Of a DNA stretch of 46,408 bases, positions 1 through 46,408 are shown piece after piece (positions within the stretch are counted from its first letter, which is position 1; every line of letters starts with the position of its first letter). A model generated the notes under the pieces. It saw only the letters and a list, made by a program, of their open reading frames with translations, made no database searches and was not told the DNA's origin. The DNA is from a virus (taxonomy: Duplodnaviria > Heunggongvirae > Uroviricota > Caudoviricetes). Both the position numbers and the translations under genes were made by a program. The stretch lies in the IMG/VR virus record IMGVR_UViG_2740892219_000006. One strand, 5' to 3'.

Positions 1-30
1 GCTTTTAGCAACAATCGCGGTTTAGAAAGT

Positions 31-585
31 ATGCAATATGGTTATGCGAGGGTGTCAACTTTTGACCAGAATTTGGAATTACAACTGGAGGCGCTCAGGA
101 GTTCAGGATGTGACCGGATTTTTGAAGATAAAATATCCGGTGCTAAATCAAAACGACCAGGACTTGATAAGCTACTGAAGGTGTTACGGCCGGGCGATAC
201 GGTTATTGTCTGGAAGCTGGACCGAATGGGGCGTTCTCTGATTCATCTTGTTGATTTACTAAACTATTTTTTATCAAACAACATTGAGTTTATTTCGATT
301 ACGGAAGGGATAAAAATTAGCACTTCAATTGGCCGCTTTGCCTACACGATGCTGAGTGCAGTCGCAGAGATGGAGCGGGAAAATATGATTGAGAGAACGC
401 GTGCAGGATTGGCGGTGGCAAGGGCTAACGGCAGGATAGGAGGACGCCGCTCAAAATTGGCACCAGAGCAATGGGAACAGATCGGAAGGCTTATTGCGAA
501 TGGTGTTTCACGTAAGCGGATAGCGATTATCTTCGATGTTACCTTATCCACGCTTTACCGCAGGTTTCCGGCTGGGAATCATTGA
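31..585 (+). CDS. Serine DNA invertase (Hin/Gin/Cin/Pin family)
   Basis: 184-aa ORF; N-terminal GYARVST catalytic-serine motif and overall resolvase/invertase pattern with C-terminal HTH; size typical of tail-fibre invertases. Confidence 0.9.
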   Translation: MQYGYARVSTFDQNLELQLEALRSSGCDRIFEDKISGAKSKRPGLDKLLKVLRPGDTVIVWKLDRMGRSLIHLVDLLNYFLSNNIEFISITEGIKISTSIGRFAYTMLSAVAEMERENMIERTRAGLAVARANGRIGGRRSKLAPEQWEQIGRLIANGVSRKRIAIIFDVTLSTLYRRFPAGNH

Positions 586-715
586 CTGGAGTTAGGCCAG
601 TAGTATGATGCTCGCAAAACGAGATCCAATTTAGATCCTTTTACTGGTGGATTATCGTTCGATCAGTGAGAGACTTCGTGCATGACCGAAAGTGTTGTGG
701 TAGAGTTCTCTTAAA

Positions 716-730
716 ACCACGTAACGTGGT
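716..730. promoter_or_regulatory. Operator-like palindrome ACCACGTAACGTGGT upstream of the repA leader
   Basis: Perfect 5-N5-5 inverted repeat lying between a possible -35 and a TATGAT -10 (731-736); same motif class as the sites between the divergent repressor and cro-like genes. Confidence 0.45.
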
Positions 731-780
731 TATGATTGTGGGTGTCTGGTTGGAAACTGACCAGATATGGAAACAAAAAG

Positions 781-806
781 CCCGCAGATAAATCTGCGGG
801 CTTCTT
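781..806 (-). terminator. Stem-loop with U-tract on the minus strand; possible terminator of a CopA-like antisense RNA
   Basis: GCCCGCAGA-TAAA-TCTGCGGGC hairpin; on the minus strand it is followed by CTTTTTGTTTCC; lies antisense to the repA leader as in IncFII copy control. Confidence 0.35.
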
Positions 807-897
807 GCGACATCCACGGAAAACCAACAACAATATCCATGGGCGCCTCGACAACTCCCATTATACGTTGGTTTTCCGTGGACGCAAGAGCGAACAT

Positions 898-1746
898 ATG
901 GATAGACCAATGCCGTCTCTACGTTCAGCTTACGTTTGTAATTTGTCGCCGGAGTTCCAGCCTCCAAAGCACCATACGCACAAGCTGCCGCTGGTGTTAT
1001 CTGATGCTTTACAGCGCATTAATGGGCGTGATCTTACGTGTGAGGTTGCGTTCTACGTTAATCAACCGTCAGAGCGGAAGCGCCGGATAAACGAGCATCG
1101 TCGTCGGGCGATTAATGCTGTGATCGCTGCGATTTTGCACCATGTAAACATCATTTCTAAGCGGGTTCTGGTTAGTGCTGAGGCGTTGGCTGATTTTTGC
1201 GGCCTGTCTACCGTATCCGAAGCTGGGAACAAGTCTATAACGCGCTGTACAAGGGCGTTGTCGCAACTGAAAGCGTTAGGTTTTATTGATTATGAACGTC
1301 GCTGGGATCGGGTGAATAAACAGTATTGGCCAGCGAAAATAGAGATTCGTGATCAACTGCTGGAAACCGTTGGTATTACTGAACAAGCATGGAGACGTGC
1401 GGTTAGCCAGAAACTTAATTACTTCAATGCGAAGAATAGCGAACGGCTTAAAAAAGCGATAACGGAGGCTGATTATAAGCGTATTGTTATTCAGGAGCAG
1501 ATGGAGAATGTATGGCGTCAGAGGAAGACGGCCAGAGAGATAAAGGCAAAACAGAAAGCAGCGGAGAGAGCTGCGCGTCTTGTTCGGGAAAAGGGAGAGG
1601 CCGAACTTCGTCATCAAATCACTAGAGAGGTTAGCCAGGAATTTGCTGATGGCATGTATCCTGGAGCTGACCTTGCATATTTACGATCCCTCGTTGAGCA
1701 GCGTTATAACAGGTTAAGAAAGACCTGGAAATCACTCCAACATTAA
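898..1746 (+). CDS. repA: Plasmid replication initiator RepA (IncFII RepA1-like)
   Basis: Translation contains SITRCTRALSQLKALGFIDYE and an HRRRAINAV block, recalled as matching IncFII RepA1 conserved regions; start placed at ATG 898 (about 283 aa) rather than the upstream alternative start of the ORF track. Confidence 0.75.
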   Translation: MDRPMPSLRSAYVCNLSPEFQPPKHHTHKLPLVLSDALQRINGRDLTCEVAFYVNQPSERKRRINEHRRRAINAVIAAILHHVNIISKRVLVSAEALADFCGLSTVSEAGNKSITRCTRALSQLKALGFIDYERRWDRVNKQYWPAKIEIRDQLLETVGITEQAWRRAVSQKLNYFNAKNSERLKKAITEADYKRIVIQEQMENVWRQRKTAREIKAKQKAAERAARLVREKGEAELRHQITREVSQEFADGMYPGADLAYLRSLVEQRYNRLRKTWKSLQH

Positions 1747-1749
1747 CCC

Positions 1750-2000
1750 TCCTGAATGATGAATCCGGTTTTACCGGAGGATTATCTACGTCGCAATAAA
1801 ATATCTGTTCAAAAAACAATCTGAATTAATTTTCTCTAAACCTGAACACAGCAAAAATATCGCCTTTACAGGCATCGGCTAATAAAGTTATCCACAGTTT
1901 TGATATGTATATGCAAATGGTTTTTTATAATAGATGCACTAAACAAATAAATGCAAAATCACTTTCTTTTATTAAGACTTTCTTTATTTAACTTACGCAG
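1750..2000. other. Putative plasmid replication origin: AT-rich tract with consensus DnaA box
   Basis: Strongly AT-rich region immediately downstream of repA; perfect TTATCCACA at 1888-1896. Confidence 0.45.
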
Positions 2001-3200: not shown

Positions 3201-3208
3201 GATTGATC

Positions 3209-3556
3209 ATGTGGACGGTACTTTTTAGCCAGCGATTTGACGACTGGCTAAATGAGCAAGAAGACGCTCTTCAGGAAAAGGTTTTGGCTGATTTGAAAAA
3301 TCTACAGGTTTACGGACCTGAGTTACCCAGGCCATATGCCGATACCGTAAAAGGTTCTCGGTACAAAAATATGAAAGAGCTTCGCGTTCAGTTTTCTGGC
3401 CGTCCGATAAGAGCCTTTTATGCGTTCGATCCGATTCGCCGGGCCATCGTTCTTTGTGCAGGAGACAAAAGTAACGATAAGCGGTTTTATAAAAAACTGG
3501 TGCGTATAGCTGAGGATGAGTTTGCAGCACATCTGAACACACTGGAGAGCAAGTAA
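3209..3556 (+). CDS. RelE/ParE-superfamily toxin (HigB/Gp49-like)
   Basis: 115-aa protein with the pattern recalled for HigB-like toxins (RVQFSGRPIRAFYAFD...AIVLCAGDKSNDKRFYKK); toxin-first order followed by an overlapping XRE antitoxin. Confidence 0.75.
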   Translation: MWTVLFSQRFDDWLNEQEDALQEKVLADLKNLQVYGPELPRPYADTVKGSRYKNMKELRVQFSGRPIRAFYAFDPIRRAIVLCAGDKSNDKRFYKKLVRIAEDEFAAHLNTLESK

Positions 3557-3855
3557 TGAGAACATTAGATGAGGTGATTGCCAGCCGTTCACCGGAAAGC
3601 CAGGCGCGAATTAAAGAAATGGCAGATGAGATGATTCTTGAGGTCGGCTTGCAGATGATGCGTGAAGAACTCCAGTTATCACAAAAACAGGTTGCTGAAG
3701 CGATGGGTATAAGCCAGCCAGCAGTAACAAAGCTGGAGCAGCGCGGAAATGATTTAAAGCTGGCGACGTTAAAGCGTTACGTTGAAGCTATGGGAGGCAA
3801 ATTAAGCCTGGATGTTGAGCTTCCCACAGGAAAGCGAGTAGCGTTCCATGTCTAA
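3556..3855 (+). CDS. XRE-family HTH antitoxin (HigA-like)
   Basis: 99-aa protein with HTH LSQKQVAEAMGISQPAVTKLE; start overlaps the toxin stop (TAATG). Confidence 0.75.
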   Translation: MRTLDEVIASRSPESQARIKEMADEMILEVGLQMMREELQLSQKQVAEAMGISQPAVTKLEQRGNDLKLATLKRYVEAMGGKLSLDVELPTGKRVAFHV

Positions 3856-4331: not shown

Positions 4332-4440
4332 TATATAATTATAGATTTATATAAAAAGTGCTTTACGGGTGGAAAAAAATTTCCTAAGGTTATACCCGAA
4401 ACCGAGCGATACCCGCCCTGGTTAAACCGGAGATAACCCG
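4332..4440 (+). promoter_or_regulatory. Conserved promoter/leader/RBS cassette, copy A (includes the AT-rich 22-bp motif)
   Basis: About 109 bp nearly identical to 14027-14134 and 21124-21233: AT-rich motif, TTTACG-N17-TAAGGT promoter-like hexamers, conserved leader and GGAG RBS directly before the ATG. Confidence 0.55.
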
Positions 4441-5966: not shown

Positions 5967-7112
5967 TTATGGTCTGCTTTTCTGTGCCAGCTTATCAGCA
6001 CATGTTTTTATCAGATCCTGTAGTGTCCTGGCTGGCAGGTTTGCATCCAGAACGCTGAGTATGCTGTTGTGATCAGCCTGGTCGACTACTTTGCCTGTCG
6101 GTGGTAGTAGCTTGAGCTGAGGATTCAGGTTTTCGTCAAAGCTGATAAGTGCTCTGGCGTTTCTGAGCAGATCAAGAAGTAAGGCTGATATCACATTTTC
6201 CTGAGTCATTGCTGGCAGATTTAGCGTCGCTTTGGTTTTCCCTGTTGCCTTGTCAAACTCCTTGATTAGTTCCTTCCTGTAGTTCGGTTCCGTTAATAGC
6301 CGATTATGCTCTGTTGCCGCGCGGATAATCGTTTTTTCCTGGTACAGTCGTTTAGCCAGATCGCGCTCGTACTGTGTTTTTAACACGCTGCTGATAGCGT
6401 TAAAGGCTTCAATGTAGGCCAGCTTGATATCCTTCACGCCTGGGCCGTCGATACTTTCCATGAGCAAGGTAAATCCGTCTTTTGTCATGCGATAGATTGT
6501 TATTTCGCGGTCGCTTCCTTCCAGCGGTCGTTGCTCTTTAAAGAAATGACGTGCCGCAGCCGTGCGAGGAATGCGTAGCGCATCGATGGCCATAACGATG
6601 GAATTGTTTGTGGTGCTGAATGCCTGGGCAACATCGGCTGAGGTTGTGAGTGGCTCGTTGTTGCACACCTTAATGTAAAACATCGGTTTGGCGTTGAGCG
6701 TATCGACAACCTCACGAGCATTGTTTGGCGAGACGGTAACGGTCGCGGCCGTTTGCGCGTTCTGGTTGAAGTAGCAGTCTTCCAGCCGTTCGAACACATC
6801 CCACGCTTGGTTAGTTTCAAGCATTTTGGCGTGACGTGCAGCCCCGCGTTCTGTCCAGAGGATGAGGGAGCGGACTTTAGGTGAAACTGGATTTTGTGAG
6901 TAGTTTAAAGCTACCCGCAATTCTTTAAGGTCATTACCAACAACTTTGAAAAAGTGTTTCCCTTCAACGAAACGTACTTTGTTCTCATGATGATTCTGGC
7001 GAATACGCACCGGCTCAGTGCCGTAAAGCTGTGCCAGTAACTCGGTAGTAATGACAGGGATTTGGTTATGCAGGATAGGCTGTAGGGTGTTAACGGTCGG
7101 AAGCGTTTTCAT
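5967..7112 (-). CDS. Phage antirepressor (ORF6N-type N-terminal domain plus Rha-like domain)
   Basis: 381 aa; N-terminal ELLAQLYGTEPVRIRQNHHENKVRFVEGKHFF is recalled as ORF6N/Ant-like; central region ITIYRMTKDGFTLLMESIDGPG..IKLAYIEAFN is recalled as Rha-like. Confidence 0.7.
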   Translation of the reverse strand: MKTLPTVNTLQPILHNQIPVITTELLAQLYGTEPVRIRQNHHENKVRFVEGKHFFKVVGNDLKELRVALNYSQNPVSPKVRSLILWTERGAARHAKMLETNQAWDVFERLEDCYFNQNAQTAATVTVSPNNAREVVDTLNAKPMFYIKVCNNEPLTTSADVAQAFSTTNNSIVMAIDALRIPRTAAARHFFKEQRPLEGSDREITIYRMTKDGFTLLMESIDGPGVKDIKLAYIEAFNAISSVLKTQYERDLAKRLYQEKTIIRAATEHNRLLTEPNYRKELIKEFDKATGKTKATLNLPAMTQENVISALLLDLLRNARALISFDENLNPQLKLLPPTGKVVDQADHNSILSVLDANLPARTLQDLIKTCADKLAQKSRP

Positions 7113-7300
7113 TTTGTACCTCCCATAACTACTTTGGTTACGAGGGAGATTTTTGCGTCAGAAACAGTGTTATCGTTGCTGGCGATGCGCATAGCTTCGC
7201 GCTCGATGATTTCAGCCAGGCGGAATTTATCGGCGTATGAGGCTTTCTTGAGAAGGATCTTTACGAGGTTGACGTAATAGTCATGGGGTAGGTTTGTCAT
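7109..7300 (-). CDS. Small protein (63 aa) translationally coupled to the antirepressor
   Basis: ATG 7300 with GGAGAT RBS; stop overlaps the antirepressor start. Confidence 0.45.
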   Translation of the reverse strand: MTNLPHDYYVNLVKILLKKASYADKFRLAEIIEREAMRIASNDNTVSDAKISLVTKVVMGGTK

Positions 7301-7594
7301 TGTGATATCTCCGATTAAAGGAACTATCACCACCAATGACGCCAATCAATATGGTGGTGAGACGTACAGGGTTGGCGTAACCGGCACAATGACAAACCCG
7401 GCGCGGATTTCTCCGCCCCCGCACGCCCCACCATAATTTGGGTGTAGCAGTGCTTTACGCATAAAAAAACCGCTAACGCGGTATGCGCCATTGTGCAATC
7501 GGGACGCCAATCCCGACCGTAGATTTTGCTACGGCTCGGAAAGTGTCCACCAATGGCGCATTCATGTCAATACGGCGGGATTTTAACAGAGACA

Positions 7595-7609: not shown

Positions 7610-7680
7610 TTTGAAAAACGGAATTTTCTGCTCATTAAGCGCATGATTTGACCAATCAAATTTGTTTGATACTGAATTTT

Positions 7681-7806
7681 GGGAATCTAATGTGAATGTA
7701 AGGAACCTTAACGTGAGTGTTGGGAACTTAACGTGATTTATTGTTGAAAAAAGTTGCTTTGCATCCAATTTTTTGGATATGATTTGAATGTAGGGAACTT
7801 CATTGT
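7681..7806. promoter_or_regulatory. Direct-repeat array (GGGAAC-TTAACGTGA-like, 3-4 copies) plus palindrome ATCCAATTTTTTGGAT in a putative promoter
   Basis: Repeats at about 7681, 7700, 7720 and 7790; the 16-bp palindrome at 7763-7778 sits between TTGCTT (-35-like) and TATGAT (-10-like). Confidence 0.45.
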
Positions 7807-7869: not shown

Positions 7870-8442
7870 ATGACTGAACTGTCAAAAAACTCATGTTTTT
7901 CAACAATTCACCTAATGATCATAAAAGAACTTAGGCTAGAAAGAGGTGTGCATCAAGGAGTGCTGGCCCAAGCGGCTGGAAAAACACCAAACGCATGGAC
8001 AAAGATAGAGAACGGGCAGTCTGTATTAACGGTTGATGCTCTTTTTGGTGCTTGCTCTGCCCTTAATATTAGCCCAATGAATTTCATGTTGTTGGTAGAA
8101 AAACTGATTCCCGAATTTAATCGCTGTGGTTACTACTTTTTCCCGGGAACAATCGATCAGGACGAGGATAACCTTTTGCCTCTGATGCTGAGTTACTTCA
8201 ACAGCAAGGGGTTTGAAGCATTGAGAAATAGGCCATTCGAAAGAATTAGCATTAGCTCAATGGGATTCTCATTTGGGGGCGGCTTCCCTGTTACTCCAAC
8301 TGCTGTAATGTATTGTTGCGATGAAGCATATAGACATTGGGTCGATAACGGTGCTGATATGGATAATCGAGATTATCTGGAGTCATCAACAGGTCTTGGA
8401 CGGTTTTTAATGAGTGAAGAAACAAAAAAACCGCCCTATTGA
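7870..8442 (+). CDS. XRE-HTH regulator with C-terminal domain of unknown function
   Basis: 190 aa; N-terminal HTH (LAQAAGKTPNAWTKIENGQ); unrecognised C-terminal about 110 aa; GAGGAGG RBS. Confidence 0.55.
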   Translation: MTELSKNSCFSTIHLMIIKELRLERGVHQGVLAQAAGKTPNAWTKIENGQSVLTVDALFGACSALNISPMNFMLLVEKLIPEFNRCGYYFFPGTIDQDEDNLLPLMLSYFNSKGFEALRNRPFERISISSMGFSFGGGFPVTPTAVMYCCDEAYRHWVDNGADMDNRDYLESSTGLGRFLMSEETKKPPY

Positions 8443-8847
8443 GGACGGTTCTTTCGTGCTGATCGGATTCGCGGTCCTTTCAGCATTACGTTGTTGTATA
8501 AACAACCACGCAAGCACAAGCAGCAAGTTGATTTTACCCAAAAGGTAATAATAGTCCACTATTATGCTTCAAAAAATTGTGGTTCTTGTTGTGTCTGCAA
8601 ACTCACAGATTGTGGGTAGGTTACTGATTTTGTGAAAATAAACTGGTTTTTTCGTTTAATTTATTTCCTATTACTAATCTTAAAATAATCGTAAAATACC
8701 TGTGGACCTTCCCGCCGATTCGCACCCGGGCACCGACTTTAGGGGAGGATTTCCTGTTGCCGTACATGCAAGCACAAGCAGCCGTGCTTGCTCTCGCGTT
8801 GTTTTCGTCGGTGGGGATGCCGTGAAACGGCCTGTAAGGGCCATACA

Positions 8848-8970
8848 ATGAAAAAATACTGTATGTGTATTTTTATCGTTGTTACTGGGGCTTTGTTTAC
8901 GCCACATGGGGAGGGTTGGAAGATTACTGATAACGCTCTGAATGTGACGATAAACATTAGCAGCAAGTAG
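8848..8970 (+). CDS. Possible small hydrophobic peptide (40 aa)
   Basis: MKKYCMCIFIVVTGALFT signal-like N-terminus; immediately followed by a strong terminator; weak RBS. Confidence 0.25.
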   Translation: MKKYCMCIFIVVTGALFTPHGEGWKITDNALNVTINISSK

Positions 8971-8975
8971 CGATT

Positions 8976-8998
8976 AGGCCCCTTCGGGGGCCTTTTTT
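8976..8998 (+). terminator. Rho-independent terminator
   Basis: AGGCCCC-TTCG-GGGGCCT followed by TTTTTT. Confidence 0.7.
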
Positions 8999-9220: not shown

Positions 9221-9469
9221 TTACTTCTGGTTGTATTGAGCCTTAAGTAACTCAAAAGATTTTGTCAGCACTTCTTTCAATGACATATCCATTGAGCTGG
9301 CGAACGTTTTGTACTCGCGTTTAAATTCAGGGTCGACGTTAAACGCCATTTGTGCCCCACCTGATTTGGTTCTGGTTGGCGTTTCAGTCGGGTCGAAAAC
9401 CTGCGGTTGTTCGATCGATGGCGGTACGCCTTTGCTGTTCTTCTTTGGTGGTTTTGATGGTGCGGCCAT
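9221..9469 (-). CDS. ParG-like ribbon-helix-helix centromere-binding protein
   Basis: 82 aa directly downstream of parA; basic, probably disordered N-terminus and an RHH-like C-terminus (MAFNVDPEFKREYKTFA...); AGAGGGG RBS. Confidence 0.55.
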   Translation of the reverse strand: MAAPSKPPKKNSKGVPPSIEQPQVFDPTETPTRTKSGGAQMAFNVDPEFKREYKTFASSMDMSLKEVLTKSFELLKAQYNQK

Positions 9470-9482
9470 GTGTATCCCCTCT

Positions 9483-9512
9483 TATATAAATCTATAAAAC
9501 TATAATTATATA
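9483..9512. repeat. AT-rich 22-bp motif copy (TATATAAATCTATA / TATAATTATATA) between parA and parG
   Basis: Member of the dispersed motif family also found at 4331, 10191, 10265, 14019, 15231, 15281, 19977 and 21116. Confidence 0.5.
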
Positions 9513-10166: not shown

Positions 10167-10190
10167 TTGTCGAGACTCCATGTGTTTGAT

Positions 10191-10294
10191 TATATAATTC
10201 TATAAATCTATATTTATAGAACGAGGTAAGCATAACCAACTTTTTGGCGGATGAAAAGCGTTTTATATAATTATATAAATCTATAATCATATAA
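10191..10294. repeat. Centromere/operator-like AT-rich iterons upstream of parA
   Basis: Two direct copies of TATATAATT-TATAAATCTATA about 70 bp apart (10191-10220 and 10265-10294) in the parA promoter region. Confidence 0.5.
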
Positions 10295-36956: not shown

Positions 36957-36972
36957 ATGATAGGAGGTTGCT

Positions 36973-37494
36973 TTGAGCAATCAAATTCCTGAGAGACTTA
37001 TTAACTTTACAGTATACGGTGAGGGAAACCGTATTATCGGTGTTGCTGACGCAAAGCTGCCATCAATCGAGATGATGACAGAGACAGTTAGTGGAGCAGG
37101 TATTGCTGGAGAGCTTGAGAGCGGAACGCTGGGGCATTTCAAACCAATGACCGTCTCTCTTAAATGGCGAACCCTAACCTCTGCTGGTACAAAATTATTT
37201 CTATCCTCATCGCATCAGGTAGATTTTCGTGGTAGCCAGCAGGTTTATGATGCCGGAACAGGAAAATATAAAACGGTTCCCATTCGGGCTTCAATGAAGC
37301 TAAACCCTAAAAAACTGGATTTAGGTTCGCTACAGGTGGCAAAGGCTACTGATTCAGAGAATGAATTTGAAGTTCTCTATATCAAATTATTTATTGATGG
37401 AAAAGAAGTCCTGGAAATTGATAAATTGAACTTTATTTGTATCTTCGATGGTGAAGATATATTAAAAAGCGTTCGTGATGATTTAGGTTTATAA
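36973..37494 (+). CDS. Tail tube protein
   Basis: 173 aa following the sheath; TTG start after AGGAGG. Confidence 0.8.
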   Translation: MSNQIPERLINFTVYGEGNRIIGVADAKLPSIEMMTETVSGAGIAGELESGTLGHFKPMTVSLKWRTLTSAGTKLFLSSSHQVDFRGSQQVYDAGTGKYKTVPIRASMKLNPKKLDLGSLQVAKATDSENEFEVLYIKLFIDGKEVLEIDKLNFICIFDGEDILKSVRDDLGL

Positions 37495-37503
37495 GGTGAC
37501 AAA

Positions 37504-37785
37504 ATGGAAACCGTTAAATTAAGTAAAGAGTATCGTTTTGAAGACTTCGAGCCGGTGACTGAACTCAACCTTGATTTAGACAACCTAAAAGGCAGCGATA
37601 TTTTAGAAGTATCGGACTTACTGCAATCTCAAGGGCATGTTACAGTTCAAACATCACTTGATCATAAAGTCCACGTTGCTCTGGCTGCTCGCTGTATTGG
37701 CCGTCCGATAGAGTATCTGAATGGATTGCCAGCGAAAGACTTTGTTAAAGTTTGCCAAAAGGTACAGAATTTTTTGCTCTCGTAG
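37504..37785 (+). CDS. Tail assembly chaperone (short form)
   Basis: 93-aa ORF upstream of the tape measure gene. Confidence 0.65.
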   Translation: METVKLSKEYRFEDFEPVTELNLDLDNLKGSDILEVSDLLQSQGHVTVQTSLDHKVHVALAARCIGRPIEYLNGLPAKDFVKVCQKVQNFLLS

Positions 37786-37934
37786 GTTTTGATGAGCAAA
37801 AACCTATTGATAAGCAAATAATGAGGGCCGCGAGTTCTCTATCTCAATCATCTCAATCAACACCTATATCCTACTGGCTTTCTCTTCGGTTGAGGCGAAT
37901 TGTCGCATGGATTGATGTGTTTAATGAGGATTAA
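37504..37934 (+). CDS. Tail assembly chaperone, -1 frameshift extended product
   Basis: Slippery heptamer T TTT TTG at 37770-37776 in the zero frame; the -1 frame stays open to 37934. Confidence 0.6.
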
Positions 37935-37939
37935 TACTA

Positions 37940-40732
37940 ATGGCCAGCAATAAGAACTTTAAGCTGGCTTTTGAAATTGGCGGCAAAGTTGCCGCCTCTC
38001 TCCCCAAAAGTTTTACTACAGCTAATCAGGCTGTTGCTAAATTAAATGCCGAGCTTGCTGGATTAACGAAAGAACATGGGGAAATTCAAAAGCTACAATC
38101 TGTAAAAGTAAAGGTTGGACAGACTGCCCTCGAATATCATAAAGCTGCCGCTCGCGTTGAAGAGTTACAGAAGCAAATAAAAAACACGGCCAATCCAACC
38201 AGAGCGATGCTTCGTGACTTTGAGAAGGCAAAAACACATTCATCGAATTTACGAGCATCACTACGTTCTCAGCGTGAAGAACTGGCCGCTTTAAAGTCTG
38301 CCTATCAGGGAGCTGATACATCTGCCAGAGCTTTGGCTTCAAGAGAGAAAGAACTTAAAGCCAGCATTGATCGTAATCGTGAGGCTCAGGCCCGTAGCGT
38401 TGAGCAGGTTAACCGCTACAGAACGGCTTTGGCTTTAGCCAGAGCAAATGTTCAGCAAGTGAAAAAACAGCAGGAGGAACTTAACCGGGCATTAGAAAAA
38501 CAACGTATTGATAAAATTAACAGCTATAAAAATGCGTTGGCTGAAGCACGGAAAAATGTTCTTGCAGTAAAACGTGCTCAGGAGGAGTTAAACCGCGCGT
38601 TGGAAAGGCAGCGTGAATTGAAGCGAGAGCATCTTGGTGAGGCAAAGAGTCAACTTGTAAGGTCAGGATTACAAACTGGTGCTGTAGCGGCTGGTGCATT
38701 TGCTGCTGCTAACAATGCAGCAAATTTCAATCGTGAAAACAAAATGATTGGTCTTACGGCAGATATGAAGCCGGAAGAAGTTCAGGCGATGGGGCAGGCG
38801 ATGCTTGTTACCGGAACGGCTACCAACCAGTTTGCATCTGATATTCAGGCCGCTCAGGGTTTTCTCGTCGCTGCTGGGCAGGATTATAAAGAGGCTCAGG
38901 CGAATCTACTAACTATTGGGCGAACAGCTACAGCTACTGGCTCTGATATCCTCGATGTCTCGAAAGCATCATTTACATTAAGTGACTCATTGAAGATTGA
39001 TCCATCTCAAATGAAGTCTGCAATGGGGATTCTGGTTCAGGCAGGGAAAGAGGGAAACTTTGAATTTAAAGATATGGCCAAAAATCTTCCTGTGCTTGGT
39101 GCCCAGTTCCAGGCATTAAAAATGGGAGGTAAAGAAGCCGCCGCGACGATGGGGGCTGCTTTGCAGATAGCTCGCAAAGGTGCTGCAACTTCGGATGAGG
39201 CTGCTAATAATATGAACAACTTTTTGGCGAAAATACTTTCCCCTGAAACGCTAAAAAAAGCAAAGAAAAATTTCGGTGTAGATTTATATAAAATTGTCAC
39301 AACAGCGCAGAAAAAAGGGAAGAATCCATTCGAAGCTGCAATGCATTCTGTCATGAAAATGACTAAGAACGGAGATCAGAAGTTACTTGGTGAGCTATTT
39401 GGCGATATGCAGGTTCAGAACTTTGTTCGTCCGATGATTCAAAACTGGAAGGAATACCAGAGAATCAAAGCAACATCTCTTGGTGCTGGAAGTGCTGTTA
39501 TTGACCGCGATTTTGCCAACATAACGAAAGACAATGCGGAGCGATTGAAACAATTACGTATTCAGGCTAGCAATGCATCATTAAGTTTTGGTCAGGCCTT
39601 GCAACCTGCTTTGAATGCCGCGCTTAGTGTTTTGGTTCCGCTGATTACAAAAATTAGTGAATTTGTAGCTAACAACCCCAATTTTGTGTCTCAGATTGTG
39701 ATGGCGGCAGGTGCGTTTCTAACCATGAAAAGTGTGGTTATAGCGTGTAGGGTAGCTATGCTGGCTTTATCTGTAGCGACAAAGCTAACACCCTTCGGGT
39801 GGATTCAGATGGCTATATCTGCGCTGGTTGCCGCAGGAATATTGCTCTATCAGAACTGGGATAAGATCAGAGATTATGCTGTCAGAGTTTGGCCTTCTGT
39901 TAAGGAATATACAGTTAAATCGTTTGAAGCTATAAAAAACTTTATCTTAAACTTTGATCTCAATGGATGGATTATATCTATGTTTGGTAAAGCATGGGAT
40001 TATCTTTCCAACATAAACTGGAGTTCGGCAGGAGTAAGAATTTACAGTACATTAATTAGTGCTTTTAAATGGATGTCTCCGCTTCCGTTCTTAATTAAAG
40101 CATTTAAACTTACAACAAATTACCTTTCTGGTATTAATTGGAGCGAAACAGGAAAGAAAATCATAGATACACTGGTATCTGTTTTTATGCGTTTTTCACC
40201 AGTTGGACTCTTTATAAGAGCATTCCAATCTGTAACGGCTTATTTGTCTGGAATAAACTGGAGTGAGTCAGGCGCAAAAATAATTGAGACGTTAATCACT
40301 GGGATAAAATCAAAAGCAAATGCTTTAATTAATGAAGTGAAAGGCGTTTTTTCTTCTGTACGTGAGTATTTACCGTTCTCTGATGCGAAAAAAGGTCCAT
40401 TCTCACAGCTAACAAAGTCAGGTAGTGCAATAATGACTACTCTGGCATCTGGTGTTAGCAGAAATAACAGCTTACAGAATGCAATCGCAACCCAGTTCGG
40501 GCAATCAAATTTATCACCTCACGGGATCTCTGCTGCCGGGAGTTATGGACCTCGCCAGAACGTTAACGCAGTGACTGGTGGGATAACCTATTCGCCTGTA
40601 ATCAATCTTCCGGCTGGCTCACCAAAGGAAACTGAGGCGGCAGCTAAAAGAGCATTAGATGCGGGATATTCTGATTTTGAGAAGAAATTGAGTGCTCATA
40701 TGTTCCAACAACGGAGATTAAGTTTTGGATGA
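37940..40732 (+). CDS. Tail tape measure protein
   Basis: 930 aa; coiled-coil N-terminus with internal repeats, hydrophobic centre, repeated NWS..G blocks. Confidence 0.85.
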   Translation: MASNKNFKLAFEIGGKVAASLPKSFTTANQAVAKLNAELAGLTKEHGEIQKLQSVKVKVGQTALEYHKAAARVEELQKQIKNTANPTRAMLRDFEKAKTHSSNLRASLRSQREELAALKSAYQGADTSARALASREKELKASIDRNREAQARSVEQVNRYRTALALARANVQQVKKQQEELNRALEKQRIDKINSYKNALAEARKNVLAVKRAQEELNRALERQRELKREHLGEAKSQLVRSGLQTGAVAAGAFAAANNAANFNRENKMIGLTADMKPEEVQAMGQAMLVTGTATNQFASDIQAAQGFLVAAGQDYKEAQANLLTIGRTATATGSDILDVSKASFTLSDSLKIDPSQMKSAMGILVQAGKEGNFEFKDMAKNLPVLGAQFQALKMGGKEAAATMGAALQIARKGAATSDEAANNMNNFLAKILSPETLKKAKKNFGVDLYKIVTTAQKKGKNPFEAAMHSVMKMTKNGDQKLLGELFGDMQVQNFVRPMIQNWKEYQRIKATSLGAGSAVIDRDFANITKDNAERLKQLRIQASNASLSFGQALQPALNAALSVLVPLITKISEFVANNPNFVSQIVMAAGAFLTMKSVVIACRVAMLALSVATKLTPFGWIQMAISALVAAGILLYQNWDKIRDYAVRVWPSVKEYTVKSFEAIKNFILNFDLNGWIISMFGKAWDYLSNINWSSAGVRIYSTLISAFKWMSPLPFLIKAFKLTTNYLSGINWSETGKKIIDTLVSVFMRFSPVGLFIRAFQSVTAYLSGINWSESGAKIIETLITGIKSKANALINEVKGVFSSVREYLPFSDAKKGPFSQLTKSGSAIMTTLASGVSRNNSLQNAIATQFGQSNLSPHGISAAGSYGPRQNVNAVTGGITYSPVINLPAGSPKETEAAAKRALDAGYSDFEKKLSAHMFQQRRLSFG

Positions 40733-40943
40733 TTATAGAACGGTTCAAGGGGACTCATGGGATAGCATCGCGTTAAAGTTGTATGGTAATGAGTACCTGT
40801 CTTATCTTCTTATTGATGCTAATACTGAGCACCGCTTTACGGTGCTTTTTTCTGCGGGAATTATTCTTAAAGTTCCTGATGCTCCGGTTATGCCAATATC
40901 AGTAAACAATTTGCCTCCGTGGAGACGCAATAGTGTTACGTAA
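40725..40943 (+). CDS. Tail protein X-like (LysM-like)
   Basis: 72 aa; YRTVQGDSWDSIALKLYG resembles a LysM/gpX motif; TTG start. Confidence 0.55.
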   Translation: MDDYRTVQGDSWDSIALKLYGNEYLSYLLIDANTEHRFTVLFSAGIILKVPDAPVMPISVNNLPPWRRNSVT

Positions 40944-41934
40944 AACGCTTTTTGATGTTATATATCAGAATGTAAATATTACCGCTCATATGTCACCTGA
41001 TGTTTTGTCAATGTCTTATACAGATAATGAAGATGGTCAGGTCGATGATATTTCTATCATATTAAAAAATGATGATGGGAAATGGTCTGGAGACTGGACA
41101 CCTAAAAAGGGTGATTTTATTGATTTGAGCTTTAAGCCTATAAATCAAATCGTTCTTGAGTGCGGGAAATTCCAGGTAGATGGCATAACTTGCTCTGGAC
41201 CACCTTCTGTTGTTGAGGTGACTGCTGTTTCTGTTCCTGTTTCATCAGGCATTAGACGAGATTTAAAAAGTAATGCATGGGAGAAAACAACTCTTAAAGA
41301 TATAGCAACTTCTATAGCTAAATTAGCTAACCTTGAGCTGTTGTTTCTTATTGATGGTGATAGTAATCCATATTATGCGCGTGAAGATCAAATGGAGGAA
41401 AGCGATTTAAAATTTCTCCATCGACTTTGCCAGGACGAAGGGTTGTCGTTAAAGGTCACTGATAGCCAATTAATAATATTTGCTCAAGAGATGTTTGAGC
41501 AAAAAGATCCTATCGCTACGCTTACGTTAGGTATTGATGAGATAATCAGATATAGCTTTAGCACACAATCTACTGATTTATATAAAAGTTGCACATGCAA
41601 ATATCGCGTACCTAAAAAAAGAAAGTCGCTTTCGTATACTTGGGTAGATCCATCCGTAGAAGAAGGGTCGAATCTTAAGATAAGAAAACTGGTAGCTAAT
41701 TTAGATGAAGCAAAACGTAAGGCAAAGGCTGCTTTGCGGCTTAAAAATAGATATCAAAATACCGGATCTTTAGTATTGGTTGGAGACACCAGATTGGTAG
41801 CTGGTGTAACTATAAATCTGGACGGATTCGGTTCATTTTCTGGAAAATATCTTATATCGAAAGCTGTGCATTCAATTGGGGCTAGTGGTTATACCACCTC
41901 GATTGATGTCCGAAGAGTAATTAATGGGTATTAA
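40933..41934 (+). CDS. Tail/baseplate hub protein (late control gene D family)
   Basis: 333-aa gpD-like protein; GTG start after GGAGACG. Confidence 0.8.
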   Translation: MLRKTLFDVIYQNVNITAHMSPDVLSMSYTDNEDGQVDDISIILKNDDGKWSGDWTPKKGDFIDLSFKPINQIVLECGKFQVDGITCSGPPSVVEVTAVSVPVSSGIRRDLKSNAWEKTTLKDIATSIAKLANLELLFLIDGDSNPYYAREDQMEESDLKFLHRLCQDEGLSLKVTDSQLIIFAQEMFEQKDPIATLTLGIDEIIRYSFSTQSTDLYKSCTCKYRVPKKRKSLSYTWVDPSVEEGSNLKIRKLVANLDEAKRKAKAALRLKNRYQNTGSLVLVGDTRLVAGVTINLDGFGSFSGKYLISKAVHSIGASGYTTSIDVRRVINGY

Positions 41935-41936
41935 TT

Positions 41937-42557
41937 ATGAATGATTTAGAAACATTATTACGTCAGACTATAAGAGTTGGCGTTGTTTCTGATATTGATG
42001 ATGGTGATGTTACAGCAAGAGTTACTTTCGATGATCAGGATAACGTCACTTCGGCAAAGTTATCAGTTATTGTGAAAAATACAGATAAGAATGCTGATTA
42101 CTGGATGCCAGATATTGGTGAGCAAGTTTTGTGTATCTTTCATCCCGCAGGGCCGCAACAAGGTTTTATTCTTGGTAGTTTTTATGATGAAACACAGAAG
42201 CCGCCATCTAATACTGTTAATAAACGCGTCATTAGATTTAATAACGGAACTCGTATTGAGATAGACAGAGAATCTAATTTACTCCTTGTTGATGCTGTCG
42301 GAGATGTAACCGTTAAGGCTACAGGAACCGTAACTATTGATGCTCCAGAAACCATCATTACCGGAAATGCTACAGTTGAAGGATTACTAACCTTCAAAGG
42401 TGGAATGAAAGGATCTTCTGCTGGAGGTGTTGCAGCTACAATTTCTGGGAATGTTAAGGTTGTTGGTGGTGATATAGATGTTGATGGGATTAAATCTAAA
42501 GGCCACCATCACACAGCTCAGGGGGAATACGCTTCGACAACGGAGGCTCAGGCATGA
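41937..42557 (+). CDS. Baseplate spike protein (gpV family)
   Basis: N-terminal RVGVVSDIDD...ARVTF pattern and size typical of gpV. Confidence 0.75.
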   Translation: MNDLETLLRQTIRVGVVSDIDDGDVTARVTFDDQDNVTSAKLSVIVKNTDKNADYWMPDIGEQVLCIFHPAGPQQGFILGSFYDETQKPPSNTVNKRVIRFNNGTRIEIDRESNLLLVDAVGDVTVKATGTVTIDAPETIITGNATVEGLLTFKGGMKGSSAGGVAATISGNVKVVGGDIDVDGIKSKGHHHTAQGEYASTTEAQA

Positions 42558-43021
42558 TTGTGGGTATGCTTGGTACAATGCCTTTTGTTGCCTCATCAAT
42601 AGTAGTGAATACGTTCAACAATTTTAAAAGGACGTCAAAGCGTCGTGTAGCGCGCCATGATGTTATTGGGCTTAAACCTGTTCTGGAGGATATAGGTCCA
42701 GATCTGGATGAAGTTAGTTTTAATATGCGGTTGGATACAACACTTGGCATTGTTCCATTGGCTGCGCTTTCATTACTTAGGACAATGCAATCAATTCAGG
42801 AAGTAAATCCTGTTGTAATTGGTATTCAGTATTTTGGTAATTTTATAATTACAGATATAGAGGAATCATGGACTTATTTCGGTCCAACTGGGAATCCGCG
42901 AGTGATTATCGTCGGCATTAAATTACAGGAAGTCGGACAGACCTCTCTGAAAGAAGCATTAGTTGATATTGCTGGCAATATAGAGTCAAAAACTAGAAGT
43001 GCGTTAGGTAAATTATTATGA
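42554..43021 (+). CDS. Tail protein, gpU-like
   Basis: 155 aa; pattern RHDVIGLKPVLEDIGPDLDEVSFNMRLD resembles remembered gpU proteins. Confidence 0.45.
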   Translation: MIVGMLGTMPFVASSIVVNTFNNFKRTSKRRVARHDVIGLKPVLEDIGPDLDEVSFNMRLDTTLGIVPLAALSLLRTMQSIQEVNPVVIGIQYFGNFIITDIEESWTYFGPTGNPRVIIVGIKLQEVGQTSLKEALVDIAGNIESKTRSALGKLL

Positions 43022-43338
43022 ATAATACGTTTACCATATCATCACCTTCTTACTCGATTGATTGGTCGCCCAAAACAGTTGTAGAAGAAGTTTTGCAAAA
43101 TGTCTCTACTATTATTAATACTCAGATTGGCACTGTACCATATGCCAGAAAATTAGGAGTTAATTCAAGTCTTGTTGATAGCCCCAGTCCAATTTTTATT
43201 GCTACAGCAACACGAGAAATAATTCAAAAAATTAGTGAGTTTGAGCCTAGAGCGATTATCCATTCTGTTACTTTTGAAAGAACGGACGTTTCTGATGGTT
43301 TTATTAGGCCAAAACTTGTGATAGGAGTTAGAGAATGA
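43018..43338 (+). CDS. Baseplate wedge protein (gpW / gp25 lysozyme-like family)
   Basis: 106-aa protein of typical size and position. Confidence 0.7.
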   Translation: MNNTFTISSPSYSIDWSPKTVVEEVLQNVSTIINTQIGTVPYARKLGVNSSLVDSPSPIFIATATREIIQKISEFEPRAIIHSVTFERTDVSDGFIRPKLVIGVRE

Positions 43339-44459
43339 CGTTGCCGCGTGGTGGTTTGCCAGATATTACTTTCGCAGATTCTAACCCGACTGATATAACA
43401 ACTCGTTCAATCAGGGCTTTTGAGAGTATAACAGGTGAAACATTAGCACCTGCTGATCCACGTAGATTATTCATCTTATCATTGTGTGAGATTATTATAC
43501 AGCAAAGAAAAGCTATCGATTTTTCTGCAAAACAAAACCTTCTTACATATGGTGAAGGTGAATATCTCGACCATATAGGCTATCTGACGGATACGCCTAG
43601 GCTGGAAGCTCAATCTGCCTTGACTACATTTGAGTTTAATCTGTCAACAAAATTATCGGGGATATATACAATACCTTCTGGCACTCAAGTTTCAACTGGA
43701 AATGGTGTTATTTTCCAAACAGATGTTTTGTTGGAAATACCTGCTGGGAAAACAGTTGGTACAGTCTCAGGATATGCTGTTATACCTGGTTTATCGGGGA
43801 ATGGCTTTTTACCAGGGCAAATAAATGAGTTGGTGACTCCGTTGCCGTATGTTTCCAGCGTAAGGAATCTAACAACATCTAATTCTGGTGCTGATACAGA
43901 GTCAGATGATAATTATGCTGAAAGAATAAAACTGTCGCCGGAAAAACTGTCTACAGCAGGGCCGGAGGATTCTTATAAATATTGGACAAGAACAGCCAAT
44001 CAGAATATAAAAGATGTGAATGTATATACACCATCGCCCGGAACTGTAGAAATCCGTTCTTTGTTAGAGAACGGAGATATACCTTCTGATGAACTATTGG
44101 AGCAGATAAATAGCGTTCTCTCTGCAACTAATATTCGACCATTCACAGATAAAGTTCTTGTTAAGAAACCAGAGAGCATTGAATACGATATAATAATTAA
44201 ATACTGGATTAACTCATCGGACAAAAACAGAACAACATTAATTCAAAGTGAGGTTGAGAAAGCTATTGATGAGTATAAACAATGGCAACGTTCGGTTATG
44301 GGAAGAGATATAAATCCAGATGAAATTATTCAACGTTTAAAAAATGCCGGGGCTAAAAGATTAGAAATATCAAGTCCTGTATTTACTGTGGTTGGAGAGA
44401 CGCAGGTCGCCAGAGAGAGAAATGTAAATTGCCAGTATGCGGGGTTAGAGGATGGCTGA
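43335..44459 (+). CDS. Baseplate protein J family
   Basis: 374 aa following the gpW-like gene. Confidence 0.8.
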   Translation: MTLPRGGLPDITFADSNPTDITTRSIRAFESITGETLAPADPRRLFILSLCEIIIQQRKAIDFSAKQNLLTYGEGEYLDHIGYLTDTPRLEAQSALTTFEFNLSTKLSGIYTIPSGTQVSTGNGVIFQTDVLLEIPAGKTVGTVSGYAVIPGLSGNGFLPGQINELVTPLPYVSSVRNLTTSNSGADTESDDNYAERIKLSPEKLSTAGPEDSYKYWTRTANQNIKDVNVYTPSPGTVEIRSLLENGDIPSDELLEQINSVLSATNIRPFTDKVLVKKPESIEYDIIIKYWINSSDKNRTTLIQSEVEKAIDEYKQWQRSVMGRDINPDEIIQRLKNAGAKRLEISSPVFTVVGETQVARERNVNCQYAGLEDG

Positions 44460-45033
44460 TATCTTTAATGTTAGCTTGTTGGATGTTTTACCTCCTAACT
44501 TAGCTAGAGATCCCAACGTGATAGCTATGTCGAAAGCTATCGATGATGAACTACAAGCAATTAACAATTTAATATATAAGACAGAAATATATAGCGTTGT
44601 TGATAACCTGGACTCAGTTGTTCTCGATCATTTAGCCTGGCAATGGAATGCTGATACATGGAGGGATAGTTGGCCTGTATCGTTAAAGCGTTCTGTTTTT
44701 AAATCAATAATACGAACAAAGCGAATAAAGGGTACAAGGGCAGCGGTTGAAGATGTAGTAAATAGCTTGGGTGGAGAGGTAAACATAACAGAATGGTTTG
44801 AAACATCACCACCTGGCGAACCATATACAGCCTCAATTGTTGCTTCGATTAACTCTTTTGATGGTGCCGTTCCTTCGAAAGAGATGTTGGAAGATACGTT
44901 AAGAAGTATCAAGAGCGCAAAGTCGGCAAGAACATTATTTACATTTTCGCAAGCTGCCAATGTTTCTGGTGGTGTTGGTATTGTTGGTGCTTGTCAGCCG
45001 GTGTCCTATGTACGATTAATTGGCGAGTGCTAA
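44452..45033 (+). CDS. Tail protein I family
   Basis: 193 aa; N-terminal LLDVLPPNLARDPNVIAM motif. Confidence 0.7.
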   Translation: MADIFNVSLLDVLPPNLARDPNVIAMSKAIDDELQAINNLIYKTEIYSVVDNLDSVVLDHLAWQWNADTWRDSWPVSLKRSVFKSIIRTKRIKGTRAAVEDVVNSLGGEVNITEWFETSPPGEPYTASIVASINSFDGAVPSKEMLEDTLRSIKSAKSARTLFTFSQAANVSGGVGIVGACQPVSYVRLIGEC

Positions 45034-45063
45034 TTCGCAATTTGTTAATTCAAGGAATTAAGC

Positions 45064-46408
45064 GTGAGTAAATTATTATTTACGATGACTGACGCCGGGC
45101 GTCAGGAGTTGGTTAATGCCAACAAAACAGGAACAAATAAAGTTGAGATTGTTTCTGTTGGTTTAGGTAGTAGATATTATGTCACGTCAACCTCACAAAC
45201 AAATATAACAGACGAAATAAAACGACTTACCACAATAGGTGGCAAAGTTGTTTCCCCTGATACAATTCATGTAACGGCGAAGGATGATAGTAAAGATGAG
45301 TATGTTGTCCATACAATAGGATTGTATACAAATAAGGGAACGTTGTTTGCTGTATACTCGCAAGAACAAGCAATAATAAATAAAGCATCATCTACTATTG
45401 CTTTAATATCAAGTGACATAGCAATTAAGACTCTTGATACTAAAAATATTACATTTGGTGATATTGAGTTTATTAATCCTCCCGCGACCGAAACTGTTGT
45501 TGGGGTTGCAAGATTTGCTAATGAACAAGAAATTGATGCAGGTACAGATGATTCCCTTGCTGTTTCAGCAAAGCGGCTTAAGCAAGCCATTGTGAAACAT
45601 GAGCAATCACGTAATCATCCTGATGCAACTTTAACCTCAAAAGGCTTTGTTCAACTTAGCAGCGCCACCAATAGCACGTCTGAAACGCTTGCTGCGACGC
45701 CTAAGGCTGTTAAGGCAGCATATGACCTGGCTAACGCTAAATACACCGCACAGGACGCTACCACGGCGCGAAAAGGGATTGTTCAGCTTAGTAGCGCAAC
45801 TAACAGCGATTCTGAGACGCTGGCAGCAACGCCAAAGGCGGTAAAGGCTGCATATGACCTTGCTAACGCTAAATACACCGCACAGGACGCTACCACGGCG
45901 CGAAAAGGGATTGTTCAACTCAGTAGCGCCACCAACAGCACGTCTGAAACACTGGCCGCGACATCGAAAGCTGTAAAGGTGGTAATGGATGAAACGAACA
46001 AGAAAGCGCCCCTGAACAGTCCGGCGCTGACCGGAACACCAACAACACCAACTGCGCCAAAAGGTACTAACAATACTCAGATCGCAAGCACGGCTTATGT
46101 TATGGCTGCGATCGCTGCCCTCGTGGACTCGTCGCCTGACGCACTGAATACGCTGAACGAGCTGGCTGCGGCGTTGGGCAACGACCCGAATTTTGCGACC
46201 ACCATGACTAACGCGCTTGCGGGTAAGCAACCGAAAGATGCCACCCTGACGGCGCTGGCCGGGCTTGCTACTGCGGCAGACAGGTTTCCGTATTTTACGG
46301 GGAATGATGTCGCCAGCCTGGCAACTCTGACAAAAGTCGGGCGGGATATTCTTGCGAAATCGACCGTTGCCGCCGTTATCGAATACCTCGGTTTACAGGA
46401 AACGGTAA
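45064..46408 (+). CDS. Tail fibre protein (P2 gpH / Mu S-like), 3-prime partial: ORF runs off the window
   Basis: GTG start after AAGGA; the sequence closely resembles P2 gpH as recalled, including Phage_fiber_2-type repeats and the C-terminal AVIEYLGLQETV segment; no stop before the window end. Confidence 0.85.
   Translation, partial: MSKLLFTMTDAGRQELVNANKTGTNKVEIVSVGLGSRYYVTSTSQTNITDEIKRLTTIGGKVVSPDTIHVTAKDDSKDEYVVHTIGLYTNKGTLFAVYSQEQAIINKASSTIALISSDIAIKTLDTKNITFGDIEFINPPATETVVGVARFANEQEIDAGTDDSLAVSAKRLKQAIVKHEQSRNHPDATLTSKGFVQLSSATNSTSETLAATPKAVKAAYDLANAKYTAQDATTARKGIVQLSSATNSDSETLAATPKAVKAAYDLANAKYTAQDATTARKGIVQLSSATNSTSETLAATSKAVKVVMDETNKKAPLNSPALTGTPTTPTAPKGTNNTQIASTAYVMAAIAALVDSSPDALNTLNELAAALGNDPNFATTMTNALAGKQPKDATLTALAGLATAADRFPYFTGNDVASLATLTKVGRDILAKSTVAAVIEYLGLQETV
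45640..46000 (+). repeat. Tandem 132-bp coding repeats (about 2.6 copies) inside the tail fibre gene
   Basis: Repeated block encoding KG(F/I)VQLSSATNS.SETLAATPKAVKAAYDLANAKYTAQDATTAR. Confidence 0.85.
46376..46401. other. gix/cix-like invertase recombination site inside the tail fibre gene
   Basis: TTATCGAATACC-TC-GGTTTACAGGAA, close to the Mu gix site as recalled (TTATCCAAAACCTCGGTTTACAGGAA). Confidence 0.6.

Follow-up and report, generated by a model that had tools for sequence, protein, structure and literature searches.

The DNA described here is a 46,408-nucleotide stretch of a virus of the Caudoviricetes (IMG/VR record IMGVR_UViG_2740892219_000006); "the window" refers to this stretch at its full length. 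It carries a replication initiator of the IncFII family (RepA), a small partition ATPase (ParA), a toxin-antitoxin pair and an immunity region, together with lysis, packaging, head and contractile-tail genes (Table 1). A total of 78 open reading frames (ORFs) were picked using an ORF list in combination with the annotation of two relatives, and their concatenated translations were scanned against Pfam; chosen ORFs were additionally scanned against PHROGs, NCBIfam and PADLOC. All ORFs of at least 150 aa were thereby covered, except two antisense frames inside the methyltransferase and TerL genes, which were left unscanned. As judged from Pfam and PHROGs, the set of virion, packaging and lysis genes is full, only the far end of the tail fibre and the genes for its assembly falling outside the window. 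Pfam detected no Phage_integrase, large serine Recombinase or transposase domain among the 78 ORFs, and the sole site-specific recombinase, a 184-aa protein, is too small for a large serine integrase; its homologue in Yersinia phage vB_YpM_44 is annotated "hin: DNA-invertase". Likewise, Pfam scans of the window ORFs revealed no Cre-like resolvase. A plasmid-type initiator and a partition ATPase thus share one molecule with phage genes, and neither integrase nor transposase accompanies them, which is the make-up of a phage-plasmid. A preliminary description of the same DNA had listed RepA, ParA, a toxin-antitoxin pair, a CI-like repressor and lysis, head and tail genes, most of which were found where expected, and its statement that tyrosine and large serine integrases are missing holds for all 78 ORFs, the small serine recombinase that is present being an invertase.

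The state in which this DNA is maintained is indicated by its relatives. PLSDB contains 42 plasmids that span 80% or more of the window's late half, at 95-99.6% identity. Among 5,426 complete Escherichia coli genomes, the 18-kb structural module occurs in 72, and 96 of its 97 places are on plasmids, nearly all of 47-51 kb; the segment containing repA and the origin occurs in 71 of the same genomes, at 82 places, every one of them on a plasmid and none chromosomal. Since both segments sit on plasmids, the replicon and the virion genes travel together. The block from 26.6 to 45 kb is moreover retained as one piece, at 98-99% identity, in 58 E. coli plasmids. As plasmids, members of the family have E. 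coli, E. albertii, Klebsiella and Salmonella as hosts, and about 1.3% of complete E. coli genomes carry one, the reference strain ATCC 25922 among them. Among the plasmid relatives, a few are cut down to 31-39 kb or contain an insertion of the IS3 family of insertion sequences (IS).

The closest relatives are circular plasmids of 47-51 kb (e.g. E. coli ATCC 25922 unnamed_1, NZ_CP009073.1; JE86-ST05_p3, NZ_AP022818.1; K. aerogenes, NZ_CP139394.1) and the Yersinia phages vB_YpM_39, vB_YpM_41 and vB_YpM_44 (OR545053-55). Gene order is the same throughout, with identities of 98-99.6% in the late half and 96-99% in the shared early parts, and all of them share the invertase, RepA, HigBA, the immI-like module, ParA, CI, the lysis genes, the tRNA and the ParB_N genes. 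What sets the window apart from them is the early half, in which accessory pieces are put together in a new way and the best-matching relative covers 57-65% of positions 1-25,000, as well as the absence of the invertible segment discussed below. The three circular relatives that are annotated have the same gene order and no integrase. The records of the three Yersinia phages are circular, 98-99% identical to the window where aligned (98.7-99% in the late half), and name Yersinia pestis EV76-CN as host; these database records are the only evidence for infectious virions in the family.

The two ends of the window are accounted for by the same relatives. The tail-fibre reading frame beginning at 45064 reaches the last base without a stop codon, and the terminal sequence, ...CCTCGGTTTACAGGAAACGGTAA (46383-46408), is a crossover sequence of the Gin/Cin (gix-like) type. 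The last base of the window (46408) corresponds to position 9215 of the ATCC 25922 plasmid and the first to position 12303, and the 3,087 bp in between encode a C-terminus of the fibre that is variable, a pair of opposed genes for tail-fibre assembly, and a second, alternative C-terminus. In this plasmid, 83-nt inverted repeats (93% complementary) surround 2.9 kb, and the end of the window lies inside the left repeat. A small serine invertase thus stands beside a segment with inverted crossover sites in the fibre gene, the arrangement of fibre switches of the Gin/Hin/Cin type. The two ends of the window flank an invertible stretch of the tail-fibre region, about 3.1 kb long, and the window is all of the element but that segment. 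Judging from these repeats, the missing segment would be explained by a break of the assembly, or of the window, at the inverted repeats, as expected of such a structure. The phage had been called complete, which it is not, as some 3.1 kb of its relatives (the fibre C-termini and the two assembly genes) are missing. It had also been noted that an integrase and attachment site next to the window would contradict extrachromosomal lysogeny; because the DNA beside the window in the circular relatives, where it joins both ends, is the invertible fibre-switch DNA and holds no integrase, this objection falls away. In the complete element the Hin-like invertase would flip the fibre segment and so alternate the host range.

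RepA is well supported as a member of the IncFII family, with 143.8 bits (E 8.9e-42; cut-off 22.9) against Pfam IncFII_repA (PF02387) and 232 bits (cut-off 70) against NCBIfam RepA_IncFII_LM (NF040977), the latter profile beginning at residue 14. In RefSeq relatives the protein is annotated with 326 aa, from an ATG that corresponds to window position 767, and a 1-nt deletion at 833 of the window frameshifts that start. Both profiles begin after the methionine at 898. In an alignment of five family members, the 146-nt repA leader is invariant except for a 6-nt patch (832-836) that exists in three alleles, including 1-nt and 3-nt indels, and of which the window has its own allele. Because the profiles start after 898 and the patch varies among relatives, the true start of RepA is placed at 898 and the indel at 833 is taken as a natural allele rather than damage. 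A frameshifted repA pseudogene was considered and rejected on the grounds that the indel lies upstream of both profile starts, in a patch that is variable among intact relatives. The same patch indels show that the RefSeq start in the relatives is placed too far upstream.

Over the leader, the minus strand (765-895) forms a long hairpin with bulges and, after it, a second, perfect terminator hairpin, with a minimum free energy of -69.4 kcal/mol (z -9.5) that none of 200 shuffled sequences equalled. Read from the sequence, a T-run after the second hairpin is present on the minus strand only, and the hypervariable patch falls within the internal loop and the upper part of the stem of the minus-strand hairpin. 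This RNA is a candidate for antisense copy control of the IncFII kind, and as such would throttle RepA synthesis. Downstream of the gene, TTATCCACA at 1888-1896 is the sole perfect consensus DnaA box in the 46 kb and lies 142 bp past the repA stop; a relaxed version of the box pattern gave 3 matches in the window for 5.9 expected and so shows no enrichment. The IncFII-like RepA of the preliminary description is therefore confirmed, and its DnaA-box origin comes down to one well-placed box. By analogy with the layout of the IncFII oriR, replication driven by RepA would begin within 1888-1995, at this box and the AT-rich stretch that follows. The window ORFs include no recognisable further replication initiator, helicase or loader, and RepA may also serve lytic replication.

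Segregation would depend on the cassette downstream of the immunity region. ParA, a 222-aa protein of the deviant-Walker type with CbiA/ParA/MipZ domains in Pfam and no N-terminal helix-turn-helix (HTH), gives a weak match to ParF among solved structures (PDB 4dzz, E 3e-4) and scores 78.5 against NCBIfam ParA_partition, below the cut-off of 180. The 82-aa product of the next gene matches no Pfam or NCBIfam family and no PDB entry, ParG and omega included; its AlphaFold2 model has a disordered N-terminal half followed by two helices (mean predicted local distance difference test score, pLDDT, of 65, and about 77-84 over the helices). Of the type Ib-like parA/parG pair proposed earlier, the small ParA thus stands and the name ParG is unverified. 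Arrays of TATA-rich units with an 8-bp period (TTATATAA / ATCTATAA) gave 13 matches, against a chance expectation of none, and lie, among other places, upstream of parA and between parA and the 82-aa gene. The arrays are kept at the same eight loci in two relatives. They often adjoin terminator hairpins, and one lies exactly at a homology breakpoint (4331). At 15213-15309, a 49-bp unit consisting of a G+C-rich hairpin and then a TATA-rich array is tandemly doubled, and occurs as a single copy in the ATCC 25922 plasmid and in vB_YpM_44. Candidate roles for the arrays are those of centromere or operator, promoters or module boundaries, and partition would proceed by the Walker-type ParA with the 82-aa protein as adaptor acting on them.

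Loss of the plasmid would be penalised by the HigBA pair, whose toxin counterpart is annotated RelE/ParE in RefSeq relatives, and probably also by an RNA of the ryfA family. The latter, which has an HTH gene on one side and the partition genes on the other, was not listed in the preliminary description and carries no annotation in the RefSeq relatives examined; a 40-aa hydrophobic ORF (8848-8970) and a terminator can be read from its sequence, by which it is likely to be a type I toxin candidate.

Immunity appears to be organised in two layers. The CI-like protein contains a Pfam HTH_3 domain and matches phrog_4, "transcriptional repressor" (E 9.6e-27), as well as phrog_6201, "CI-like repressor", over residues 110-214, PHROG repressor families thereby covering the whole of its length. 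The CI/Cro-like region reported earlier is hence verified for its repressor, and the designation Cro is unverified, as neither Pfam nor PHROGs gave a Cro family match for 11615-12109. The palindrome ACCAC-N5-GTGGT occurs four times (at 716, 10727, 11478 and 11581) compared with 0.05 expected, and a longer form of the pattern gives seven matches on both strands at the same loci compared with 0.02 expected. Two of the sites lie in the divergent region between cI and the early genes (11478-11492 and 11581-11595), one between cI and orf124-parA (10727-10741) and one before the repA leader (716-730); the operators are conserved in two relatives. A CI-like repressor acting on these operators would hold lysogeny, and the distribution of the sites suggests that one repressor may also govern partition and replication.

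The second layer, which the preliminary description did not mention, is an operon like P1 immI, in which the antirepressor and a small ORF overlapping it lie downstream of a C4 antisense RNA. In Rfam, C4 scores 72.3 bits (gathering threshold 45) and isrK 67.3 bits (gathering threshold 50), with c4-a1b1 at 41.7, below its gathering threshold of 46.7, and the antirepressor at 5967-7112 matches ORF6N (E 5.2e-19) and Phage_pRha (E 1.8e-11) in Pfam. Wired as in P1, the C4 RNA would hold the antirepressor down. Three 20-bp direct repeats (7673-7736; TRF, period 20 x 3.2 copies) separate this operon from a divergent HTH gene.

In combination, these data make it very probable that the window represents, without the invertible segment, about 94% of a temperate myovirus of some 48-50 kb that resides in the lysogen as a circular low-copy plasmid and belongs to a homogeneous family already present in the databases. 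The extrachromosomal lysogeny proposed from the gene content is supported by the location of 96 of 97 structural and 82 of 82 repA-ori places on plasmids and by phage records with 98-99% identity. Upon induction, the lambda-type terminase and head proteins and the P2-type tail would build the virion.

Several observations weigh against this reading or against parts of it. The window itself gives no proof of topology or copy number, one of the 97 structural-module places in E. coli genomes is chromosomal, and, as the fibre C-terminus and assembly genes are absent from the window, this copy may or may not be intact. RepA scores 79 bits against the classical IncFII equivalog TIGR03474, far under the cut-off of 447, and is consequently not of the R1/R100 subtype; Rfam CopA gives no match over the repA leader even at E <= 1. 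Regarding multimer resolution, no cer/dif-like Xer site was found in the window at up to 3 mismatches. The CI-like protein has no Peptidase_S24 match and solved structures match its HTH domain only, for which reasons a RecA-cleavable repressor was rejected. Finally, the SOS-box pattern (CTGT-N8-CAG) is present in the window at chance frequency, inside genes only and never in a promoter, and SOS control of the antirepressor was rejected on these grounds.

The alternative that survives best, with a slim chance of being correct, is a cryptic phage-like plasmid that replicates while this copy, or the plasmid lineage, no longer makes infectious particles. Such a state would agree with most relatives being known as plasmid records only, with some of them being cut to 31-39 kb or carrying an IS element, and with the window being without the distal fibre and its assembly genes. 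However, the missing segment is accounted for by a break at the inverted repeats, all head, tail, lysis and packaging genes in the window are intact ORFs with a full-length family match, and the late half is nearly identical to phage genomes recorded with a Y. pestis host.

A different doubt concerns the origin of the virion genes, which had been described as a mosaic of a lambda-like head and a more AT-rich Mu/P2-like tail. The family types are correct, in that the head proteins fall into Pfam families named after lambda and the tail proteins into families named after P2, and the lowest G+C content (0.38-0.39) is found in the baseplate region. Conversely, the windowed profile (0.44-0.50 over 1-26 kb, 0.38-0.43 over 31-46 kb) falls to 0.40-0.43 already within the head genes, from about 29 kb, and shows no step at the head-tail junction. 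Capsid and sheath both have their nearest relatives outside the family in Vibrio phages (47-50% identity), and both also match Paenibacillus phage Lily (40% and 44% identity, respectively), in which their order is the same and their spacing similar. Because capsid and sheath share these distant relatives, the lambda-type head and P2-type tail represent an old, co-inherited arrangement; with the conserved block at 26.6-45 kb also spanning both, a recent chimera of a lambda-like head with a foreign tail is very unlikely. Recent mosaicism is, as far as the alignments indicate, confined to the early and accessory half, where the best relative reaches the 57-65% given above and pieces are held in common with Shiga toxin (Stx) phages and P1.

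Lastly, an integrated prophage whose integrase and attachment site fall just outside the window is scarcely credible: the window is linear and incomplete with its flanks unseen, and one chromosomal structural-module place does exist, but the circular relatives join the window ends by about 3.1 kb of fibre-switch genes and nothing else, three fully annotated relatives lack an integrase, and the remaining structural places and all repA-ori places are on plasmids.

Within the favoured reading, a plasmid-resident temperate myovirus, the phage and plasmid halves might form one circuit through shared repressor operators, the arrays as a dispersed centromere or regulon, and the leader patch as an incompatibility determinant, a proposal that is tentative and, taken as a whole, rather unlikely. 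By analogy with omega in pSM19035, the eight array sites could be a dispersed centromere or the regulon of the 82-aa ParG-like protein, and the 6-nt leader patch may set copy-control specificity or incompatibility types within the family. If the proposal is true, the immunity repressor would set copy number and partition, and its loss would free the sole RepA for lytic replication.

The remaining genes are listed in Table 1. Accessory genes of the early operon are common to Stx phages and P1, as seen from nucleotide matches to the EaA region. The two overlapping ORFs at 19577-19979 of the lysis cassette are predicted to be spanins from a transmembrane segment and a lipobox in their translations. 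The tRNA with a CAT anticodon was assigned to Met by ARAGORN; the label tRNA-Ile of the RefSeq relatives would require lysidine modification. In the region ahead of the terminase PADLOC returned MTase_II matches, and among the accessory genes methyltransferases only, with no other defence system. The three ParB_N proteins were judged not to be partition proteins and look like accessories of DNA modification or packaging.

Table 1. Features of the 46,408-nucleotide window, in order of position.
Feature	Position	Strand	Details
Hin/Gin/Cin-type small serine DNA invertase	31-585	+	Pfam Resolvase E 1.2e-42, HTH_7 E 1.8e-12; 184 aa
Palindrome AAACCACGTAACGTGGTTAT	714-733	.	Between promoter-like site (582-609) and repA leader; core as in the operators beside cI
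Candidate CopA-like antisense RNA	765-895	-	Long bulged hairpin and intrinsic terminator, antisense to repA leader
RepA, IncFII-family initiator	898-1746	+	282 aa from ATG 898
Putative origin	1888-1995	+	Consensus DnaA box TTATCCACA (1888-1896), then AT-rich stretch
Type II toxin-antitoxin, HigB/HigA	3203-3855	+	Gp49/HigB toxin 3203-3556 (E 2.4e-21); HTH_3 antitoxin 3556-3855 (E 4.1e-18)
P1 immI-like module	5967-7548	-	isrK/c4-a1b1 7463-7548; C4 antisense RNA 7350-7438; icd-like ORF 7109-7345; antirepressor 5967-7112
HTH regulator divergent from immI-like operon	7870-8442	+	Pfam HTH_3
ryfA-family RNA	8702-8998	+	Rfam 143 bits (gathering threshold 80), full length 1-296
Partition cassette	9221-10293	-	ParA 9513-10181; 82-aa downstream gene 9221-9469; arrays 10190-10293 and 9482-9504
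CI-like repressor and divergent control region	10784-11614	-	Repressor 10784-11440; operators 11478, 11557 (degenerate), 11581
Early rightward operon	11615-17986	+	Unknown proteins, Ref-type RecA-dependent nuclease, DUF1064, DUF3560, DUF7446, accessory genes (Pfam, PHROGs)
Ref-type RecA-dependent nuclease	12851-13255	+	Pfam
DUF3560 protein	14135-15202	+	Pfam
Lysis cassette	18373-19979	+	Two holins, a GH108 endolysin and a pair of overlapping spanin-like ORFs; Pfam Phage_holin_8 E 7.4e-36, Phage_holin_3_7 E 8.8e-16, Glyco_hydro_108 and PG_binding_3 (holins and endolysin 18373-19580)
tRNA, CAT anticodon	20149-20224	+	ARAGORN: Met; RefSeq relatives: Ile
Methyltransferase/ParB_N region ahead of terminase	20533-27234	+	MT-A70, small unknown ORFs, three ParB_N proteins
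MT-A70 methyltransferase	20533-21120	+	Pfam MT-A70
ParB_N proteins	23354-23977; 23971-25350; 26644-27234	+	Pfam; 23971-25350 with methyltransferase domain (Methyltransf_23)
Packaging and head module	27225-35493	+	TerS (phrog_57 E 7.4e-42), gpA-type TerL (GpA_ATPase, GpA_nuclease), DUF6148, lambda-family portal (Phage_portal_2 E 2.4e-100), ClpP-type protease (CLP_protease), decoration-like protein, gpE-type capsid (Phage_cap_E E 2e-54), four connector ORFs
Contractile tail and baseplate	35493-45033	+	Sheath (by RefSeq annotation of relatives and tblastn), FII tube, chaperone, tape measure, gpD, gpV spike, gpU, gpW, gpJ, gpI; Pfam Phage_tube, PhageMin_Tail, Phage_GPD, Phage_base_V, Phage_P2_GpU, GPW_gp25, Baseplate_J, Tail_P2_I
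Tail fibre, constant N-terminal part	45064-46408	+	P2 gpH-type; Phage_fiber_2 repeats E 1.6e-61
TATA-rich arrays at eight intergenic loci	4332-4354; 9482-9504; 10190-10212; 10263-10293; 14027-14049; 15236-15315; 19979-20009; 21116-21146		All in early half

The family is not new, having already been sequenced as dozens of near-identical plasmids and three isolated phages, and it is under-described in the literature searched, in which neither a paper on the family or on vB_YpM_39, vB_YpM_41 or vB_YpM_44 nor a named phage-plasmid group for the family was found. The examined records label it as plasmid only and its gene products as "phage" or "hypothetical", and in one preprint vB_EcoM-613R2 is listed without being recognised as a plasmid prophage. 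The name p0111 was considered for the family and rejected, since the literature ties it to P1-like elements. The groups of phage-plasmids named in the surveys consulted are P1/D6, N15, the SSU5 supergroup and AB (PMC7969092; 10.1101/2025.09.12.675607); the SSU5 supergroup and N15 are described as siphoviruses, with P1 given as the example of a myovirus (PMC7969092). A persistent gene set shared with a named group of Pfeifer et al. 2021, whose groups include P1, N15, SSU5_pHCM2, pKpn, pSLy3, pMT1 and AB as well as others, was not found, the nucleotide relatedness to P1 being limited to a short EaA segment. The family consequently stands outside the named groups, and surveys limited to these would miss it. 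It offers a compact model of about 48 kb in which an IncFII-type replicon, minimal partition, two immunity layers and a virion with lambda-type head and P2-type tail are combined.

Individual modules of the element resemble known systems. Like the IncFII replicons R1 and R100 (copB-copA-tap-repA-oriR), it has a RepA of this family, a DnaA box and AT-rich region downstream of repA, and an antisense candidate over the leader; it differs from them in being without a CopA match in Rfam and without a copB gene, the position of CopB control being occupied by a palindrome of the phage immunity operator type. Similarly, the partition cassette resembles type Ib systems (TP228 ParF-ParG-parH; pSM19035 delta-omega) in a ParA that has no DNA-binding domain at its N-terminus and whose gene precedes a very small one, in the short-period repeat arrays upstream of the operon and in the weak ParF match, whereas the 82-aa protein does not match ParG or omega and the TATA-rich 8-bp unit is also present at six intergenic loci outside the cassette.

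Considered in its entirety, the element parallels P1, with which it has in common the plasmid prophage, an invertible fibre segment with an invertase of the Cin/Hin type, the immI system (C4, icd, ant), a Ref nuclease as well as addiction modules. With a size of about 94 kb, P1 has an iteron-type RepA, a type Ia ParA/ParB, Cre-lox and the headful mode of packaging, and its structural genes bear no relation to those of the window; the only nucleotide match to P1 is the short segment of the EaA region, at 95%. In contrast to P1, the element described here has an IncFII-type replicon, a small ParA, no Cre, and a terminase and head of the lambda type. N15 is a siphovirus that is linear and encodes a telomerase, and its prophage repressor acts on the replication gene of the plasmid as well. 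The element differs from N15 in not being a linear siphovirus with telomerase and in its RepA, and resembles it in that one type of palindrome is common to the cI region and the front of repA, which hints at a control of repA by the repressor, as in N15.

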